Origin: a virus
Taxonomy: Duplodnaviria > Heunggongvirae > Uroviricota > Caudoviricetes
Length of the DNA stretch: 4,816 bases
Direction: 5' to 3' (one strand)
IMG/VR virus record: IMGVR_UViG_2713896737_000023
Shown here: piece after piece, positions 1 to 4,689 of the stretch
Numbering within the stretch: position 1 is the first letter of the stretch
Layout: the number at the start of each line of letters is the position of its first letter
Program-made: the position numbers and the translations under genes
Notes under the pieces: generated by a model
What the model was told of the DNA's origin: nothing
Databases searched by the model: none
The model's input: the letters and a program-made list of their open reading frames with translations, nothing else

Positions 1-35
1 AAAATGTCAGCCAGCTGCTTTTTGTTGACTTCCAT
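1..35 (-). CDS. nu1: Terminase small subunit Nu1, N-terminal fragment (start codon at 35-33, gene continues beyond the window start)
   Basis: Reverse complement of 1-35 reads ATG GAA GTC AAC AAA AAG CAG CTG GCT GAC ATT = MEVNKKQLADI, which matches the N-terminus of lambda Nu1 as I recall it. It sits immediately downstream (in late-transcription direction) of the cos site, as in lambda. Confidence 0.8.
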   Translation of the reverse strand, partial: MEVNKKQLADI

Positions 36-260
36 TGTTCATTCCACGGACAAAAACAGAGAAAGGAAACGACAGAGGCCAAAAAGCCCGTTTTCAGCAC
101 CTGTCGTTTCCTTTCTTTTCAGGGGGTGTTTTAAATAAAAACATTAGGTTACGGCGAAGAAGAACGGAAACGCCTTAAACCGGAAAATTTTCATAAATAG
201 TGAAAAACCGCGAGGTCGCCGCCCCGTAACCTGTCGGATCGCCGGAAAGGACCCGCAAAA
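36..260. other. cos: Lambda-type cos region: cosB with Nu1-binding R-like repeats (GGAAACGACAG at 65-75, inverted copy CTGTCGTTTCC at 101-111, CGGAAACG at 165-172), cosN cohesive sequence 213-224, cosQ-like AGGACCC at 248-254
   Basis: Positions 213-224 are AGGTCGCCGCCC, the exact reverse complement of the lambda 12-nt cohesive end GGGCGGCGACCT. Flanking sequence on both sides closely matches the lambda left end (cosB, Nu1 start) and right end (CGTAACCTGTCGGATC) as recalled. R-element and cosQ positions are assigned by analogy and are approximate. Confidence 0.8.
213..224. other. cosN: cosN 12-nt cohesive-end sequence (terminase nicking site)
   Basis: Exact 12-mer AGGTCGCCGCCC (reverse complement of lambda GGGCGGCGACCT), seen directly in the sequence. 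Confidence 0.8.
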
Positions 261-275
261 TGATAATAATTATCA
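261..275. promoter_or_regulatory. Perfect 7-1-7 palindrome TGATAAT-A-ATTATCA matching the Fur-box consensus (candidate Fur operator; could instead be a packaging-related element beside cosQ)
   Basis: Seen directly: a 15-bp perfect inverted repeat identical to the 7-1-7 Fur-box core (TGATAATnATTATCA). It lies about 10 bp from the cosQ-like motif and about 150 bp upstream of the ylcI-like ORF. From memory, lambda carries a near-identical palindrome at the equivalent position. Confidence 0.35.
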
Positions 276-423
276 TCTACATGTCACAACGTGCATCTAC
301 GCCATCAAACCACGTCAAATAATCAATTATGACGCAGGTATCGTATTAATTGATCCGCATCAACTTAACGTAAAAACAACTTCAGACAATACAAATCAGC
401 GACACTGAATACGGGGCAACCTC

Positions 424-618
424 ATGTCAACGAAGAACAGAACCCGCAGAACAACAACCCGCAACATCCGCTTTCCTAACCAAATGATTGAACAAATTAA
501 CATCGCTCTTGATCAAAAAGGGTCCGGAAATTTCTCAGCCTGGGTCATTGAAGCCTGCCGTCGGAGGCTAACGTCAGAAAAGAGAGCATATACATCAATT
601 AAAAGTGATGAAGAATGA
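424..618 (+). CDS. ylcI: YlcI-like small ribbon-helix-helix-type protein (64 aa, DUF3950-like), cos-proximal accessory gene
   Basis: 64-aa ORF with a basic N-terminal tail (STKNRTRRTTTR) followed by a beta-strand/helix/helix pattern (RNIRFP, NQMIEQINIAL, NFSAWVIEACRRRL) typical of RHH DNA-binding proteins. Length and position match ylcI of the K-12 DLP12 prophage, whose gene order (rzpD, borD, ybcV, ybcW, ylcI, nohD) this window mirrors. The symbol is assigned from synteny and length, not from a sequence alignment. Confidence 0.6.
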   Translation: MSTKNRTRRTTTRNIRFPNQMIEQINIALDQKGSGNFSAWVIEACRRRLTSEKRAYTSIKSDEE

Positions 619-782
619 ACATCCCGCGTTCTTCCCTCCGAACAGGACGATATTGTAAATTCACTTAATTACGAGGGCATTGCAGTAATTGAGTTGCAGT
701 TTTACCACTTTCCTGACAGTGACAGACTGCGTGTTGGCTCTGTCACAGGTTAAGTAGTTTGAATGATTAGCAGTTATGGTGA

Positions 783-989
783 TCAGTCAACCACCAGGGA
801 ATAATCCTTCATATTATTATCGTGCTTCACCAACGCTGCCTCAATTGCCCTGAATGCTTCCAGAGACACCTTATGTTCTATACATGCAATTACAACATCA
901 GGGTAACTCATAGAAATGGTGCTATTAAGCATATTTTTTACACGAATCAGATCCACGGAGGGATCATCAGCAGATTGTTCTTTATTCAT
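783..989 (-). CDS. ybcW: YbcW-like small acidic protein (68 aa), function unknown
   Basis: 68-aa ORF on the minus strand with a GGAG Shine-Dalgarno about 7 nt upstream of the ATG at 989. Length and position (divergent from the ybcV-like gene, between it and ylcI-like) match DLP12 ybcW and a lambda right-end ORF. Synteny-based assignment. Confidence 0.6.
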
Positions 990-1274
990 TTTGTCGCTCC
1001 ATGCGCTTGCTCTTCATCTAGCGGTTAAAATATTACTTCAAATCTTTCTGTATGAAGATTTGAGCACGTTGGCCTTACATACATCTGTCGGTTGTATTTC
1101 CCTCCAGAATGCCAGCAGGACCGCACTTTGTTACGCAACCAATACTATTAATTGAAAACATTCCTAATATTTGACATAAATCATCAACAAAACACAAAGA
1201 GGTCAGACCAGATTGAAACGATAAAAACGATAATGCAAACTACGCGCCCTCGTATCACATGGAAGGTTTTACCA

Positions 1275-1685
1275 ATGGCTCAGGTTGCCATTTTTAAAGA
1301 AATATTCGATCAAGTGCGAAAAGATTTAAACTGTGAATTGTTTTATTCTGAACTAAAACGTCACAATGTCTCACATTATATTTACTATCTAGCCACAGAT
1401 AATATTCACATTGTGTTAGAAAACGATAACACTGTGTTAATAAAAGGACTTAAAAAGGTTGTGAATGTTAAATTCTCAAGAAATACGCATCTTATAGAAA
1501 CGTCCTATGATAGGTTGAAATCAAGAGAAATCACATTTCAGCAATACAGGGAAAATCTTGCTAAAGCAGGAGTTTTCCGATGGGTTACAAATATCCACGA
1601 ACATAAAAGATATTACTATGCCTTTGATAATTCATTACTATTTACTGAGAGCATTCAGAACACTACACAAATCTTTCCACGCTAA
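1275..1685 (+). CDS. ybcV: YbcV/YdfO-like DUF1398 family protein (136 aa); lambda right-end accessory ORF homolog
   Basis: ORF in the same frame as the 177-aa track ORF. I place the start at ATG 1275 because GGAAGG lies 8 nt upstream, giving 136 aa, the length of K-12 YbcV. Alternative upstream ATG at 1233; the track start at 1152 is TTG and probably not used. It sits directly upstream of bor in the same orientation, as in DLP12 and lambda. Confidence 0.65.
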
Positions 1686-1976
1686 ATCATCACGTCCGGT
1701 TTCTTCCGTGTCAGCACCGGGGCGTTGGCATAATGCAATACGTGTACGCGCTAAACCCTGTGTGCATCGTTATTAATTATTCCCGGACACTCCCGCAGAG
1801 GAGTTTCCCTGTCAGGGCTGCGGACATAGTTAATCCGGGAATACAGTGACGATCCTTCGCATCTGACATACATTAATAAATATTAACAATATGAGATTTC
1901 AACTCATTGTTTAGGGTTTGTTTAATTTTCTACACATACGATTCTGCGAACTTTAAAAAGCATCGGGAATAACACC

Positions 1977-2270
1977 ATGAAAAAAATGCTACTCGCTACT
2001 GCGCTGGCCCTGCTTATTACAGGATGTGCCCAACAGACGTTTACTGTTCAAAACAAACCGGCAGCAGTAACACCAAAGGAAACCATCACCCACCATTTCT
2101 TCGTCTCTGGAATTGGGCAGAAGAAAACTGTCGATGCAGCTAAAATTTGTGGCGGCGCAGAAAATGTTGTTAAAACAGAAACCCAGCAAACATTCGTAAA
2201 TGGATTGCTCGGTTTTATTACTTTAGGCATTTATACTCCGCTGGAAGCGCGTGTGTATTGCTCACAATAA
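1977..2270 (+). CDS. bor: Bor outer-membrane lipoprotein (serum-resistance lysogenic-conversion protein, Iss homolog)
   Basis: 97-aa product MKKMLLATALALLITGCAQQTF... with a signal peptide and lipobox (LITGC), essentially identical to lambda Bor as recalled. Convergent with Rz, as in lambda. Confidence 0.92.
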   Translation: MKKMLLATALALLITGCAQQTFTVQNKPAAVTPKETITHHFFVSGIGQKKTVDAAKICGGAENVVKTETQQTFVNGLLGFITLGIYTPLEARVYCSQ

Positions 2271-2276
2271 TTGCAT

Positions 2277-2302
2277 GAGCTGCCCATCGATATGGGCAGC
2301 TC
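2277..2302. terminator. Perfect 10-bp-arm inverted repeat (GAGCTGCCCA / TGGGCAGCTC, central ATCGAT) between the convergent bor and Rz stop codons; probable transcript-end hairpin
   Basis: Seen directly: 26-nt palindrome 7 nt after the bor stop and abutting the Rz stop. No strong U-tract on either side, so terminator strength is uncertain. Confidence 0.4.
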
Positions 2303-2763
2303 TATCTGCACTGCTCATTAATATACTTCTGGGTTCCTTCCAGTTGTTTTTGCATAGTGATCAGCCTCTCTCTGAGGGTGAAATAATCCCGTTCAGCGGT
2401 GTCTGCCAGTCGGGGGGAGGCTGCATTATCCACGCCGGAGGCGGTGGTGGCTTCACGCACTGACTGACAGACTGCTTTGATGTGCAACCGACGACGACCA
2501 GCGGCAACATCATCATGCAGAGCATCATTTTCAGCTTTCGCATCAGCTAACTCCTTCGTGTATTTTGCATCGAGCGCAGCAACATCACGCTGACGCATCT
2601 GCATGTCAGTAATTGCCACGTTCGCCAGCTTCAGTTCTCTGGCATTTTTGTCGCGCTGGGCTTTGTAGGTAATGGCGTTATCACGGTAATGATTAACAGC
2701 CCATGACAGGCAGACGATGATGCAGATGAGCAGAGCGGAGATAATCGCGGTTATTCTGCTCAT
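2302..2763 (-). CDS. Rz: Rz i-spanin (inner-membrane spanin subunit)
   Basis: 153-aa product [48 protein letters not shown]..., near-identical to lambda Rz as recalled. It has an N-terminal TMD and a coiled-coil periplasmic domain, and its start overlaps the R stop (ATGA). Confidence 0.92.
2361..2543 (-). CDS. Rz1: Rz1 o-spanin (outer-membrane lipoprotein), embedded in the +1 frame of Rz
   Basis: 60-aa product [24 protein letters not shown]... with a lipobox (VVGC) and a proline-rich mature region (PPPPPAW...PPPDW), near-identical to lambda Rz1 as recalled. Fully nested inside Rz. Confidence 0.85.
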
Positions 2764-3236
2764 ACCTCACTCTCTCTGACCGTTCCGCCAGCTTCTTTGA
2801 ATTTTGCAATCAGGCTGTCAGCCTTATGCTCGAACTGACCATAACCAGCGCCCGGCAGTGAAGCCCAGATATTACTGCAACGGTCGATTGCCTGACGGAT
2901 ATCACCGCGATCAATCATAGGTAAAGCACCACGCTCTTTAATCTGCTGCAATGCCACTGCGTCCTGGCTTTTGGGGGAGAAGTCTTTCAAACCAAGCTGT
3001 TTACGGTAAGCATCCCACCAGCGTGAAAGAAGCTGATAACGTCCGGCGGCTGTTGATTTGAGTTTGGGGTGTAGCGTGACAAGTTTGCGAGGGTGATCGG
3101 AGTAATCAGTAAACAGTTCGCCGCCAACAATAACATCATAACCGTGGTTACGTGTCGGTTGTCGCCCGTTATCCGTTCCTTCTGACCACGCCAACATATC
3201 GAGGAAGGCTTTACGCTGAGGATTAAGATTTTGCAT
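2760..3236 (-). CDS. R: Endolysin R (lambda-type lytic transglycosylase)
   Basis: 158-aa product ...[20 protein letters not shown]...[25 protein letters not shown]... matches lambda R over almost its whole length as recalled, including the catalytic Glu19 in the AWSEGTD context. The N-terminal ~6 residues differ from lambda. The start overlaps the holin 3' end by 14 nt. Confidence 0.92.
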
Positions 3237-3540
3237 TTTTCACCCCTGTCAGTCGTTCCCAGAAGTACGTCAGTGCAACCGAACCCATCGCACCACTAAT
3301 CCCCGCTGTCGCGAGAATCATGTAAATACTGAATCCACTTTCGATGCTGATCAGGCCACCAATAACACCGGTGAATCCTGATACCACTATTTGAGCCAGA
3401 GCATTTATCCAACTCCACGTTGCTTTACTCTGCTTCACATCTATCAGGTAGCGGACCAGACCGCCCCAACCTGCGATGATCAGCAAAACGAGCCAGAACG
3501 CTCCGGCAAGGCTCTCTTTTTCGTGCATATGAATAGCCAA
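3223..3540 (-). CDS. Class I holin (three predicted TMDs), not lambda S-like
   Basis: ORF immediately upstream of and overlapping R. Three hydrophobic segments (LAGAFWLVLLIIAGWGGLV, WINALAQIVVSGFTGVIGGLI, GFSIYMILATAGISGAMGSVAL) and a charged C-terminus ([11 protein letters not shown]). The codon at 3540-3538 is TTG (weak GGCGG about 7 nt upstream); the first ATG is at 3528-3526, giving 101 aa. The start is therefore ambiguous. Confidence 0.7.
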   Translation of the reverse strand: MAIHMHEKESLAGAFWLVLLIIAGWGGLVRYLIDVKQSKATWSWINALAQIVVSGFTGVIGGLISIESGFSIYMILATAGISGAMGSVALTYFWERLTGVKNAKS

Positions 3541-3642
3541 TGTTTCGCCGCCGACAAAAGGCCGGGACGTTAAATGTCAGAAATCAGGCTCACGGGGTAA
3601 TTTAACGACAAAGCACGGAGTTGATGCTCCCCACAAGCCTGG

Positions 3643-3668
3643 AATAAAAAAGCCAGCATGTAGCTGGC
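3643..3668 (-). terminator. Intrinsic terminator (distal, minus strand): stem GCCAGC/GCUGGC, loop UACAU, then UUUUUUAUU
   Basis: Seen directly on the minus strand: perfect 6-bp GC-rich stem (plus 3652-3657 / 3663-3668) followed by a U-tract (plus A-tract 3644-3651), between the Q-like gene and the holin. Confidence 0.6.
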
Positions 3669-3744
3669 AACAGAGGGCTAAGCAATATCAACTCAACAGC
3701 TGAAGACCCCCTGGCTGGGGTAGGTTGGAAGGCTACTCACCGTT

Positions 3745-3780
3745 CAGAAACAGAAAAGCCCAAGGCTTTAAACCTCGGGC
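3745..3780 (-). terminator. Intrinsic terminator (proximal, minus strand; candidate tR'): stem GCCCGAGG/CCUUGGGC, loop UUUAAAG, then UUUUCUGUUUCUG
   Basis: Seen directly on the minus strand: 8-bp stem with two G-U pairs (plus 3773-3780 / 3758-3765) followed by a U-rich tract, about 55-85 nt downstream of the candidate late promoter. Confidence 0.6.
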
Positions 3781-3837
3781 TTGAATTTGGATTACTGCCA
3801 GTGCGTACAACATTGGCAAAATATCAGATTTACATAA

Positions 3838-3866
3838 AATATATGATTTTTAATCCAGTTTTGCAA
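3838..3866 (-). promoter_or_regulatory. Candidate sigma70 late promoter (pR'-like): -35 TTGCAA (3866-3861), 17-bp spacer, -10 TATATT (3843-3838)
   Basis: Minus strand reads ...gaTATTGCAAaactggattaaaaatcaTATATTttatgtaaatctgatatttt.... The -35 overlaps the Q-like stop codon, as in lambdoid pR' arrangements. A -10-like GATATT/TATTTT in the initial transcribed region could act as a sigma-dependent pause element. Motif-based only. Confidence 0.4.
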
Positions 3867-4539
3867 TATCTTGCTGTGAAAATGTGGTCTTTTGTTTTGA
3901 ACGTGTTTTCGTTAAAAGCAATAAAGCTTGGCTATCAAGCTGTAGAAAAATGTGTTTCATTGCAACCCAGCGTTCAGTAAATGTCTCAGACCAGTTTTTT
4001 GATGTCACTCCCACCAGTGATGCCAGCTCCTGGTATTCATAGGTCTTACGCCCTGCCAGCTCGTTCTTCACATCCTGTGCCGCCAGCCAGATCAACTTCT
4101 TCAAACGTTCCAGTGTCTTACCTGCAATTTTCCTGGTACCCAACAGAGTCTTAAACTCGCTCCATGCCCACTGCGTTATGGTGACCTGATGTTCCCAGCG
4201 AACACTTTCGCTGTAACTCCACAGCAACCACGCTTTCTGATGTTCTTCGAGAGACAGAACCGCGCGGCGCCATGACGAGGTTGAGAACTCAACCTGGCTG
4301 ACCAGTGCAATGGATGAACCTTTTGCGTACGACTGCTTACCGGAAATCGGCGGATTATCCAGCGTAATCATCCTGCCAGTTACCTCATCCAGAATGCGCG
4401 GCTTCTTTCGTTTGTATGTACCAGTATCAAATTGTGCATGCTCCAGCCAGGCTTCAAGCTGTCCTTTCGTTGCTCCGCTCAAATCAGCGGTAGCCACAAT
4501 GAGTTGCTCGCGGACATACTGTAAATATTGGGTATTCAT
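3850..4539 (-). CDS. Putative late-gene antiterminator Q (229 aa, non-lambda type, no cysteines)
   Basis: 229-aa ORF with an AGGAG Shine-Dalgarno 7 nt upstream. It is directly upstream of a promoter, tandem terminators and the lysis cassette, which is the canonical Q position. It has no similarity to lambda Q as recalled and lacks any Cys, so it is not a zinc-finger Q-lambda type. Assignment is by synteny. Confidence 0.55.
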   Translation of the reverse strand: MNTQYLQYVREQLIVATADLSGATKGQLEAWLEHAQFDTGTYKRKKPRILDEVTGRMITLDNPPISGKQSYAKGSSIALVSQVEFSTSSWRRAVLSLEEHQKAWLLWSYSESVRWEHQVTITQWAWSEFKTLLGTRKIAGKTLERLKKLIWLAAQDVKNELAGRKTYEYQELASLVGVTSKNWSETFTERWVAMKHIFLQLDSQALLLLTKTRSKQKTTFSQQDIAKLD

Positions 4540-4676
4540 GCGGCAGCTCCTTTCAGTGTTTTGGCGTAATTCTTCAGTATCCGGTAATCGGTCAAAACAG
4601 AACCAGGAAAACGATATAAGCGCAGGCGCATCCAGCGGTGGCGAAGACGTTCTGCCATATAAGACTCAAACATCAT
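4536..4676 (-). CDS. Small basic ORF (about 46 aa; YlcG-like by size and position), translationally coupled to the Q-like gene
   Basis: My own translation of the minus strand: ATG ATG TTT GAG TCT TAT ATG GCA GAA CGT ... GGA GCT GCC GCA TGA = MMFESYMAERLRHRWMRLRLYRFPGSVLTDYRILKNYAKTLKGAAA. Its TGA overlaps the Q-like ATG (ATGA), and GGGGA lies 4-7 nt upstream of the two candidate ATGs. It is below the ORF-track size cutoff. DLP12 has a 46-aa ylcG directly upstream of its Q homolog. Confidence 0.4.
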   Translation of the reverse strand: MMFESYMAERLRHRWMRLRLYRFPGSVLTDYRILKNYAKTLKGAAA

Positions 4677-4689
4677 TCATTCCCCAGTT

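Follow-up and report, generated by a model that had tools for sequence, protein, structure and literature searches.

A phage 82-type Q gene and its predicted late promoter region in a lambdoid prophage of the Escherichia coli O157 lineage

The stretch of viral DNA considered here (Caudoviricetes; IMG/VR record IMGVR_UViG_2713896737_000023) is 4,816 nucleotides (nt) long and is called the window. It contains an open reading frame (ORF) at 3850-4539 that lies at the end of the nin region, directly 5' of the late promoter and the lysis genes. On the basis of this position, an earlier reading made from the letters alone (the sequence-only reading) took the product for a Q-type late regulator. It described a protein of 229 amino acids (aa) that is free of Cys, rich in Trp and unrelated to lambda Q, and considered a Q82-like family, a Q21-like family or an undescribed one. 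To which Q family does the protein belong, and does the adjacent DNA hold a site at which it could act? From its sequence, the product is a phage 82-type Q; it is an already known regulator and not a new one. It is very probably the late-gene antiterminator of a lambdoid prophage of the O157 lineage, and its cognate loading site lies beside it.

Identity of the Q gene and its product

The Q ORF starts with ATG, and an AAGGAG ribosome-binding site is found 7 nt 5' of this codon. In the sequence ATGA it shares bases with the stop codon of the 46-aa ylcG ORF, which is the layout expected for translational coupling. The ORF and composition given by the sequence-only reading are confirmed: the protein has no Cys and 10 Trp (4.4%) in 229 aa, and the Trp-rich peptide WLLWSYSESVRWEHQVTITQWAWSEF corresponds to residues 104-129. 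Pfam PF06323 (Phage_antiter_Q) is matched with 316.3 bits against a gathering cutoff of 25 (E 1.4e-94). Residues 4-220 align to positions 1-217 of the 220 in the model, which amounts to its full length. The score of 316 bits against PF06323 shows a genuine gene rather than a chance ORF. The Q proteins fall into three families, of which PF06323 is the Q82 family (PMC9388147, PMC7171158). The family is narrow; it comprises 2,780 clusters at 90% identity, whereas its representatives at 50% identity number only 172 among 1.84 billion. The protein also belongs to PHROG 304, 'anti-termination protein Q-like'. No other Pfam family matches at E<=1, including those of lambda Q and Q21, and no NCBIfam model matches the protein. 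When the PDB was searched by sequence, neither the single protein (E<=10) nor the family profile matched any Q, AlpA or Q21 chain.

The DNA is 97.6% identical to GenBank X92588 (phage 82), in which the gene is annotated as 'phage 82 Q antiterminator'. Its product (CAA63332.1) is identical to the window protein at 225 of 229 positions, without gaps. The four substitutions are all in the C-terminal tail (from window to phage 82: Q204E, K211R, T218A and D224N). The identical protein is named 'bacteriophage antitermination protein Q' in RefSeq (WP_001097228.1); it comes from E. coli O157 prophages, at loci which are 100% identical. The Q-type late regulator and the Q82-like option of the sequence-only reading are thus borne out, by the full-length PF06323 match and by 98% identity to the Q82 type protein. 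The same results exclude an undescribed Q family. The Q21-like option found no Pfam support at E<=1, and no homology to a non-Q family was seen in Pfam, PHROG or NCBIfam at the thresholds used.

At an assumed average Cys content of 1.15%, a protein of 229 aa is Cys-free by chance about 7% of the time; alone, the absence of Cys is not statistically remarkable. Among close homologs (at least 75% identity), 64 of 116 have no Cys and 43 have a single one. Distant full-length representatives of the Q82 family carry 1-8 Cys in 60 of 62 cases, and Cys-freeness was rejected as a signature of the family for this reason. It is a trait of the 82 clade. No column of the family alignment holds a conserved Cys; in the commonest Cys columns (108, 122 and 198), other members have Ala, Thr/Val and Leu/Phe, respectively. 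The Q82 family therefore has no metal-binding motif. Its conserved residues are R10, A16, Y109, D202, L206 and four Trp (W104, W126, W183 and W191) which are at least 90% conserved across the family.

The late promoter, its leader and the proposed mechanism

A sigma70 promoter, pR', overlaps the 3' end of Q. In the promoter scan its -35 hexamer is TTGCAA (3866-3861) and its -10 hexamer is TATATT (3843-3838). The 17-nt spacer between them, AACTGGATTAAAAATCA (3860-3844), contains the Q stop codon. The Q-binding element of phage 82 is located between -35 and -10, within -31 to +30 of the 82 pR' (PMC4914094); by this published layout, the spacer is the predicted Q-binding element of the window. 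The pause element of the 82 pR' is described as -10-like and nearer to TATAAT than that of lambda, with an extended -10, GCC at +15 to +17 and a U at +25, the pause end (PMC5001585). The A at 3831 was assigned as +1 because this is the sole register that places GCC at +15 to +17 and U at +25. The assignment rests on positional features in the published text, not on a base-by-base comparison with the 82 pR' sequence. In this register the putative pause module is made up of TG at 3826-3825 (+6/+7), TATTTT at 3823-3818 (+9 to +14) and GCC at 3817-3815, and the predicted pause site is 3807/3806, with the U at 3807. The window pR', with TG-A-TATTTT at +6 to +14, would fit an 82-type pause at +25/+26.

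Two intrinsic terminators lie between pR' and the first late gene, which encodes the holin. The first, tR', is a 12-bp hairpin (3782-3756; +50 to +76) followed by a U-rich tract. The leader fold that includes it has an energy of -27.6 kcal/mol (z -3.68), and none of 200 shuffled sequences is as stable. The second is a GCCAGC-loop-GCTGGC hairpin (3668-3652) followed by TTTTTT; its fold has an energy of -11.9 kcal/mol (z -3.25). No tRNA genes were found between Q and the lysis genes, unlike in Shiga toxin (Stx) phages. The promoter/terminator fragment that had been proposed from the letters alone (3643-3866) fits this anatomy. The whole is a known object: phage 82 Q with its qut/pR'/tR' region.

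Two other sites are present on the opposite strand. The sequence TTGCaatatcTTGC at 3861-3874 (+), antisense at the 3' end of Q, fits the CII-binding consensus TTGYN6TTGY, and its palindromic TTGCAA doubles as the pR' -35. In the phage 434 record, a CII site and the paQ -35 are annotated at the same place. A strong promoter-like site at 3813-3840 (+) (TTGGCA-16-TAAAAT, 10/12 in the promoter scan) faces the 3' end of Q in the antisense direction, and its sequence overlaps that of the initial transcribed region of pR'. It could be a chance occurrence in an AT-rich region or an antisense promoter.

The cis elements were compared across 82 loci with close relatives of Q (75-100% protein identity, the lower end being a Salmonella locus), which contain 31 distinct regulatory variants; the scan made with the single protein yielded relatives of at least 85% identity. 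The -35 and -10 hexamers and the TG-N-TAT core are kept in the 31 variants, the exception being a -35 of TTGCTA at one locus (L049). The spacer is nearly invariant, and the distance between the pR' elements and the Q stop codon does not vary. Conservation of the spacer may be explained in part by the coding of the last Q codons. The regulatory region of the window is identical to that of 20 other loci. Downstream of about +15 to +25 there are at least four unrelated leader/terminator versions: an 82-type, a 434-type, a type without a terminator within 100 nt and a Salmonella isrJ type (loci L009-L088, L005 and L007). A mosaic boundary is thus located just past the pause module, and the region from -35 to about +15/+25 is conserved along with Q. 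An essentially invariant pR' with switching downstream is what joint inheritance of Q and its loading site, with an exchangeable downstream cargo, would be expected to produce.

The published mechanism of 82Q is applied to this locus because the two proteins are nearly identical. 82Q binds the Q-binding element, engages the sigma70 polymerase paused at +25/+26 with the help of NusA, and contacts the beta-flap (PMC4914094, PMC5001585). The protein identity and the cis elements come from the present analysis; the biochemical steps come from the literature. In the window, Q would bind the element inside pR'. Polymerase started at pR' would retain sigma70, which would re-bind the extended -10-like element in the early transcribed region, and this re-binding would pause the polymerase at +25/+26. 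DNA-bound Q, aided by NusA, would join the paused complex via the beta-flap and the RNA-exit region and would stay on. The Q-modified polymerase would then pass both terminators and transcribe the genes for holin, endolysin and Rz/Rz1 and the later and morphogenesis genes. Without Q, pR' would yield only a terminated leader of about 80-85 nt, as estimated from the terminator position. We infer from the sequence that this Q allele is active.

The leader resembles isrJ, a small RNA (sRNA) family. The Rfam model (RF01393) aligns in full length to 3834-3755 (-) with 30.4 bits, which is below the gathering score of 37; a local search on the leader gives E 0.0005. The first 14 nt of the leader, UGUAAAUCUGAUAU, are identical to isrJ, pause element included. 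A Salmonella enterica contig (L007) has an isrJ match of 44.2 bits, above gathering, at 4706-4784 (+). There, the promoter and pause element seen in the window follow a Q82-family gene with 75% identity, and after them come the isrJ match, a second terminator and lysis genes; the second terminator-like element is at the same position as that of the window. IsrJ has been described as an sRNA of the Gifsy-1 island with an effect on invasion (PMC2330248, PMC4825925), and the available portions of these two sources contain no description of it as a late-promoter leader. The arrangement on the contig suggests that a Q82-type late promoter gives rise to Salmonella IsrJ as its terminated leader. An sRNA, StxS, is produced from the pR' of Stx phages (PMC7547250), and by analogy the leader at this locus might be a stable sRNA. 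A broader reading joins these points: the leader (about 3831 to 3746, -) would be in the lineage of the Hfq-binding, virulence-associated IsrJ and would accumulate in lysogens as a trans-acting sRNA. The Q82 module would then double as an sRNA gene of enterohaemorrhagic E. coli, and IsrJ would be a by-product of Q82-type antitermination control. Such a reading is tentative, on the doubtful side. The link suggests a simple origin for a virulence-associated sRNA of Salmonella, and it predicts a similar RNA in O157 lysogens. In phage 434, a near-threshold match to the Rfam STnc100 sRNA (41.4 vs 47 bits) is located at 147-351 (-) of the sequence used (L005), in a late-region moron downstream of the Q82-like gene.

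Neighbouring genes and the prophage

The gene order is ylcG-Q-promoter-terminators-holin-endolysin-Rz (Table 1), and bor lies on the strand opposite to the lysis genes. The holin belongs to PF16083 (LydA-type, holin superfamily III) and not to the lambda S family; that of the Salmonella contig belongs to PF05106. Its start is ambiguous: TTG at 3540 or ATG at 3528, the RefSeq choice. The endolysin has no match in Pfam-A at E<=1, whereas the holin, Rz and Bor nearby do. At 55-121 there is a long and nearly perfect inverted repeat (GAAAGGAAACGACAG...CTGTCGTTTCCTTTC) with TTTTC after it. It probably serves as a strong terminator, possibly in both directions, that separates ylcI from the packaging gene side. 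Matches to miRNA families of Rfam at this position were dismissed as spurious, the element being a generic long hairpin.

Table 1. Positions of the features described in the window, with the basis of each assignment
Feature	Coordinates	Strand	Basis
Q gene, 229-aa Q82-family antiterminator, allele of phage 82 Q	3850..4539	-	ORF, Pfam, PHROG, phage 82 identity, RefSeq
Late promoter pR'	3838..3866	-	promoter scan; conserved across 31 variants
Inferred transcription start (+1 = A)	3831	-	register fit to PMC5001585
Putative sigma70-dependent pause module	3806..3826	-	sequence matched to 82 pR' description (PMC5001585)
First intrinsic terminator, tR'	3746..3782	-	terminator scan
Second intrinsic terminator	3642..3668	-	terminator scan
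Short terminated leader RNA, isrJ-like	3755..3834	-	Rfam RF01393
ylcG (orf45 of phage 82), 46 aa	4536..4676	-	NCBIfam NF033498, 80.5 bits; PHROG 2705; orf45 position in X92588
Holin, first late gene under predicted Q control	3223..3540	-	Pfam PF16083, 77.6 bits; PHROG 785; RefSeq 'phage holin family protein'
Endolysin (R), 158 aa	2760..3236	-	RefSeq 'glycoside hydrolase family 24 protein' at identical loci
Rz spanin	2302..2763	-	Pfam PF03245, 179 bits; RefSeq rzpD
Rz1, embedded in Rz in another frame	2361-2543		ORF list
Left end of IS1203/IS629-type element (IS3 family)	4690..4816	+	match breakpoint; RefSeq IS1203 family transposase adjacent

The source element is an O157-lineage lambdoid prophage of E. 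coli. Among 5,426 complete E. coli genomes, 315 contain 80% or more of the window. Similarity to phage 82 and other phages ends at about 4689-4690. Matches to E. coli genomes span 1-4689, and an 'IS3-like element IS1203 family transposase' is annotated next to them. In the window, the transposase of this IS1203-type insertion sequence (IS) starts at 4744. The IS cuts rusA 17 nt upstream of ylcG, leaving only 17 nt of the gene, and parts ylcG-Q from the rest of the nin region. The contiguous IS1203/ylcG junction was not found in the 5,426 genomes (best 86.7-94.5% identity). Related O157 prophages carry IS1203 at other positions of the same region.

Alternative explanations and known systems

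The sequence-only reading called the protein unrelated to lambda Q. This stands for the sequence and the Pfam family: BLASTP gives a non-significant E of 3.9, hhalign gives a probability of 0.5%, and the absence of Cys and of any PF03589 match at E<=1 agrees with its statement that the protein is not of lambda type and has no zinc-binding motif. For the fold it probably does not stand. The best PDB matches of the AlphaFold2 (AF2) model are AlpA and lambda Q, which are the exclusive top matches; they are weak (Foldseek E-values 0.26-0.30, TM-scores 0.35-0.45). In residues 21-80 of the model, the block means of the predicted local distance difference test (pLDDT) are 56-89, and five of the six 10-residue blocks are below 75. 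A shared fold of Q82, AlpA and lambda Q has been proposed, and the zinc finger of lambda Q is described as an insertion (PMC9371919). On the predicted fold, Q82 would consist of an AlpA/lambda-Q-like helical core and a C-terminal helix-turn-helix, without the zinc-finger insertion; Q82 would need no Cys because this insertion is missing. It is plausible, if a little short of probable, that Q82 and lambda Q are divergent homologs and not unrelated analogs, the zinc finger being a later insertion. The hhalign and BLASTP results argue against homology, as does the lack of a PDB match to the family profile. So do the TM-scores, which belong to a predicted and not a solved structure. In addition, all-helical domains with a helix-turn-helix can converge, and lambda Q and Q21 have been judged to be analogs only (PMC9388147).

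Several points weigh against a working 82-type unit at this locus. The transcription start was assigned from published numbering. The likeness in fold comes from a predicted model with low confidence in residues 21-80 and weak Foldseek E-values. Even in phage 82 the mechanism is not settled: the choice between a closed nozzle and an open shield for Q82 has been raised as a question, and the ability of 82Q to load on complexes that carry long RNA speaks against the closed form (PMC9388147). Finally, IS1203 lies directly upstream of ylcG and cuts Q from its normal early-operon context, and expression here is therefore uncertain. It is exceedingly improbable that the ORF encodes another DNA-binding phage protein, such as an antirepressor or a replication protein, or the first member of an undescribed Q family. 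Apart from a weak match of the family profile to a TetR-type helix-turn-helix in the PDB (E 1.2), no non-Q signal was seen. The idea is already refuted by the full-length PF06323 match and by near-identity to the biochemically characterised 82Q, and no rival family appears in Pfam, PHROG or NCBIfam at the thresholds used. The IS bears on a different possibility, namely that Q is intact but a silent relic. IS1203 would sever the early (pR/N-dependent) transcript, Q would not be made on induction and the late region would be inert; the protein would still be of Q82 type. The loss of nearly all of rusA to the IS3-family element and the absence of the exact junction from the complete genomes are in its favour, and IS1203 elsewhere in related O157 prophages suggests ongoing decay. 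However, the ORF and its ribosome-binding site are intact, as are the promoter, the pause element, the terminators and the lysis genes, and 20 other loci have the identical regulatory region. Q could still be reached by N-modified transcription or by transcription running outward from the IS, and the window ends inside the IS, with the upstream context beyond view. A silent relic is rather unlikely. A phage 82-type antiterminator with its cognate loading site is the preferred explanation.

Comparison with the other families places Q as follows. Lambda Q (PF03589; PDB 4MO1, 7UBM/7UBN) has a Cys-based zinc finger, whereas Q82 lacks one, and the two have no detectable sequence similarity. The pause is at +16/+17 in lambda and at +25/+26 in phage 82. 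AlpA of Pseudomonas aeruginosa (168 aa; PDB 7XYA/7XYB) has 13% identity to Q, with a root-mean-square deviation of 5.5 A; it is a chromosomal cell-death regulator, whereas Q is a phage late regulator. Q21 (PF06530) has the same role and genome position in lambdoid phages as Q82. Membership of Q in this family found no Pfam match at E<=1 and no PDB sequence match at E<=10, and no Q21 chain is among the fold matches listed. Q82 is the only Q family without an experimental structure; the AF2 model, with AlpA and lambda Q as its top matches, would support the published shared fold minus the zinc finger. The practical gain is a correct annotation as Q82, one of the three textbook Q antiterminator families. 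The cis elements of the Q82 unit can be mapped to the base in this prophage.

Among phages, the 'Q82-like' antiterminator of phage 434 (UMO75331.1, OL657226) is of the same family and length, with 88% DNA identity over Q. Phage 434 shares the -35, a nearly identical spacer and the TG-N-TAT pause element with the window. It differs in its -10 (TATACT) and pause hexamer (TATGTT), and after about +15 its sequence is unrelated, with one different terminator and other downstream genes. The window differs from phage 82 in belonging to an O157-type prophage in which IS1203 cuts rusA upstream. In other respects the two are alike. Phage 82 Q, the type member of PF06323, also has 229 aa, and in phage 82 orf45/ylcG likewise precedes Q with an overlapping Q start. 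Both have the features published for the 82 pR', with GCC at +15 to +17, U at +25 and a pause element of the extended -10-like kind.
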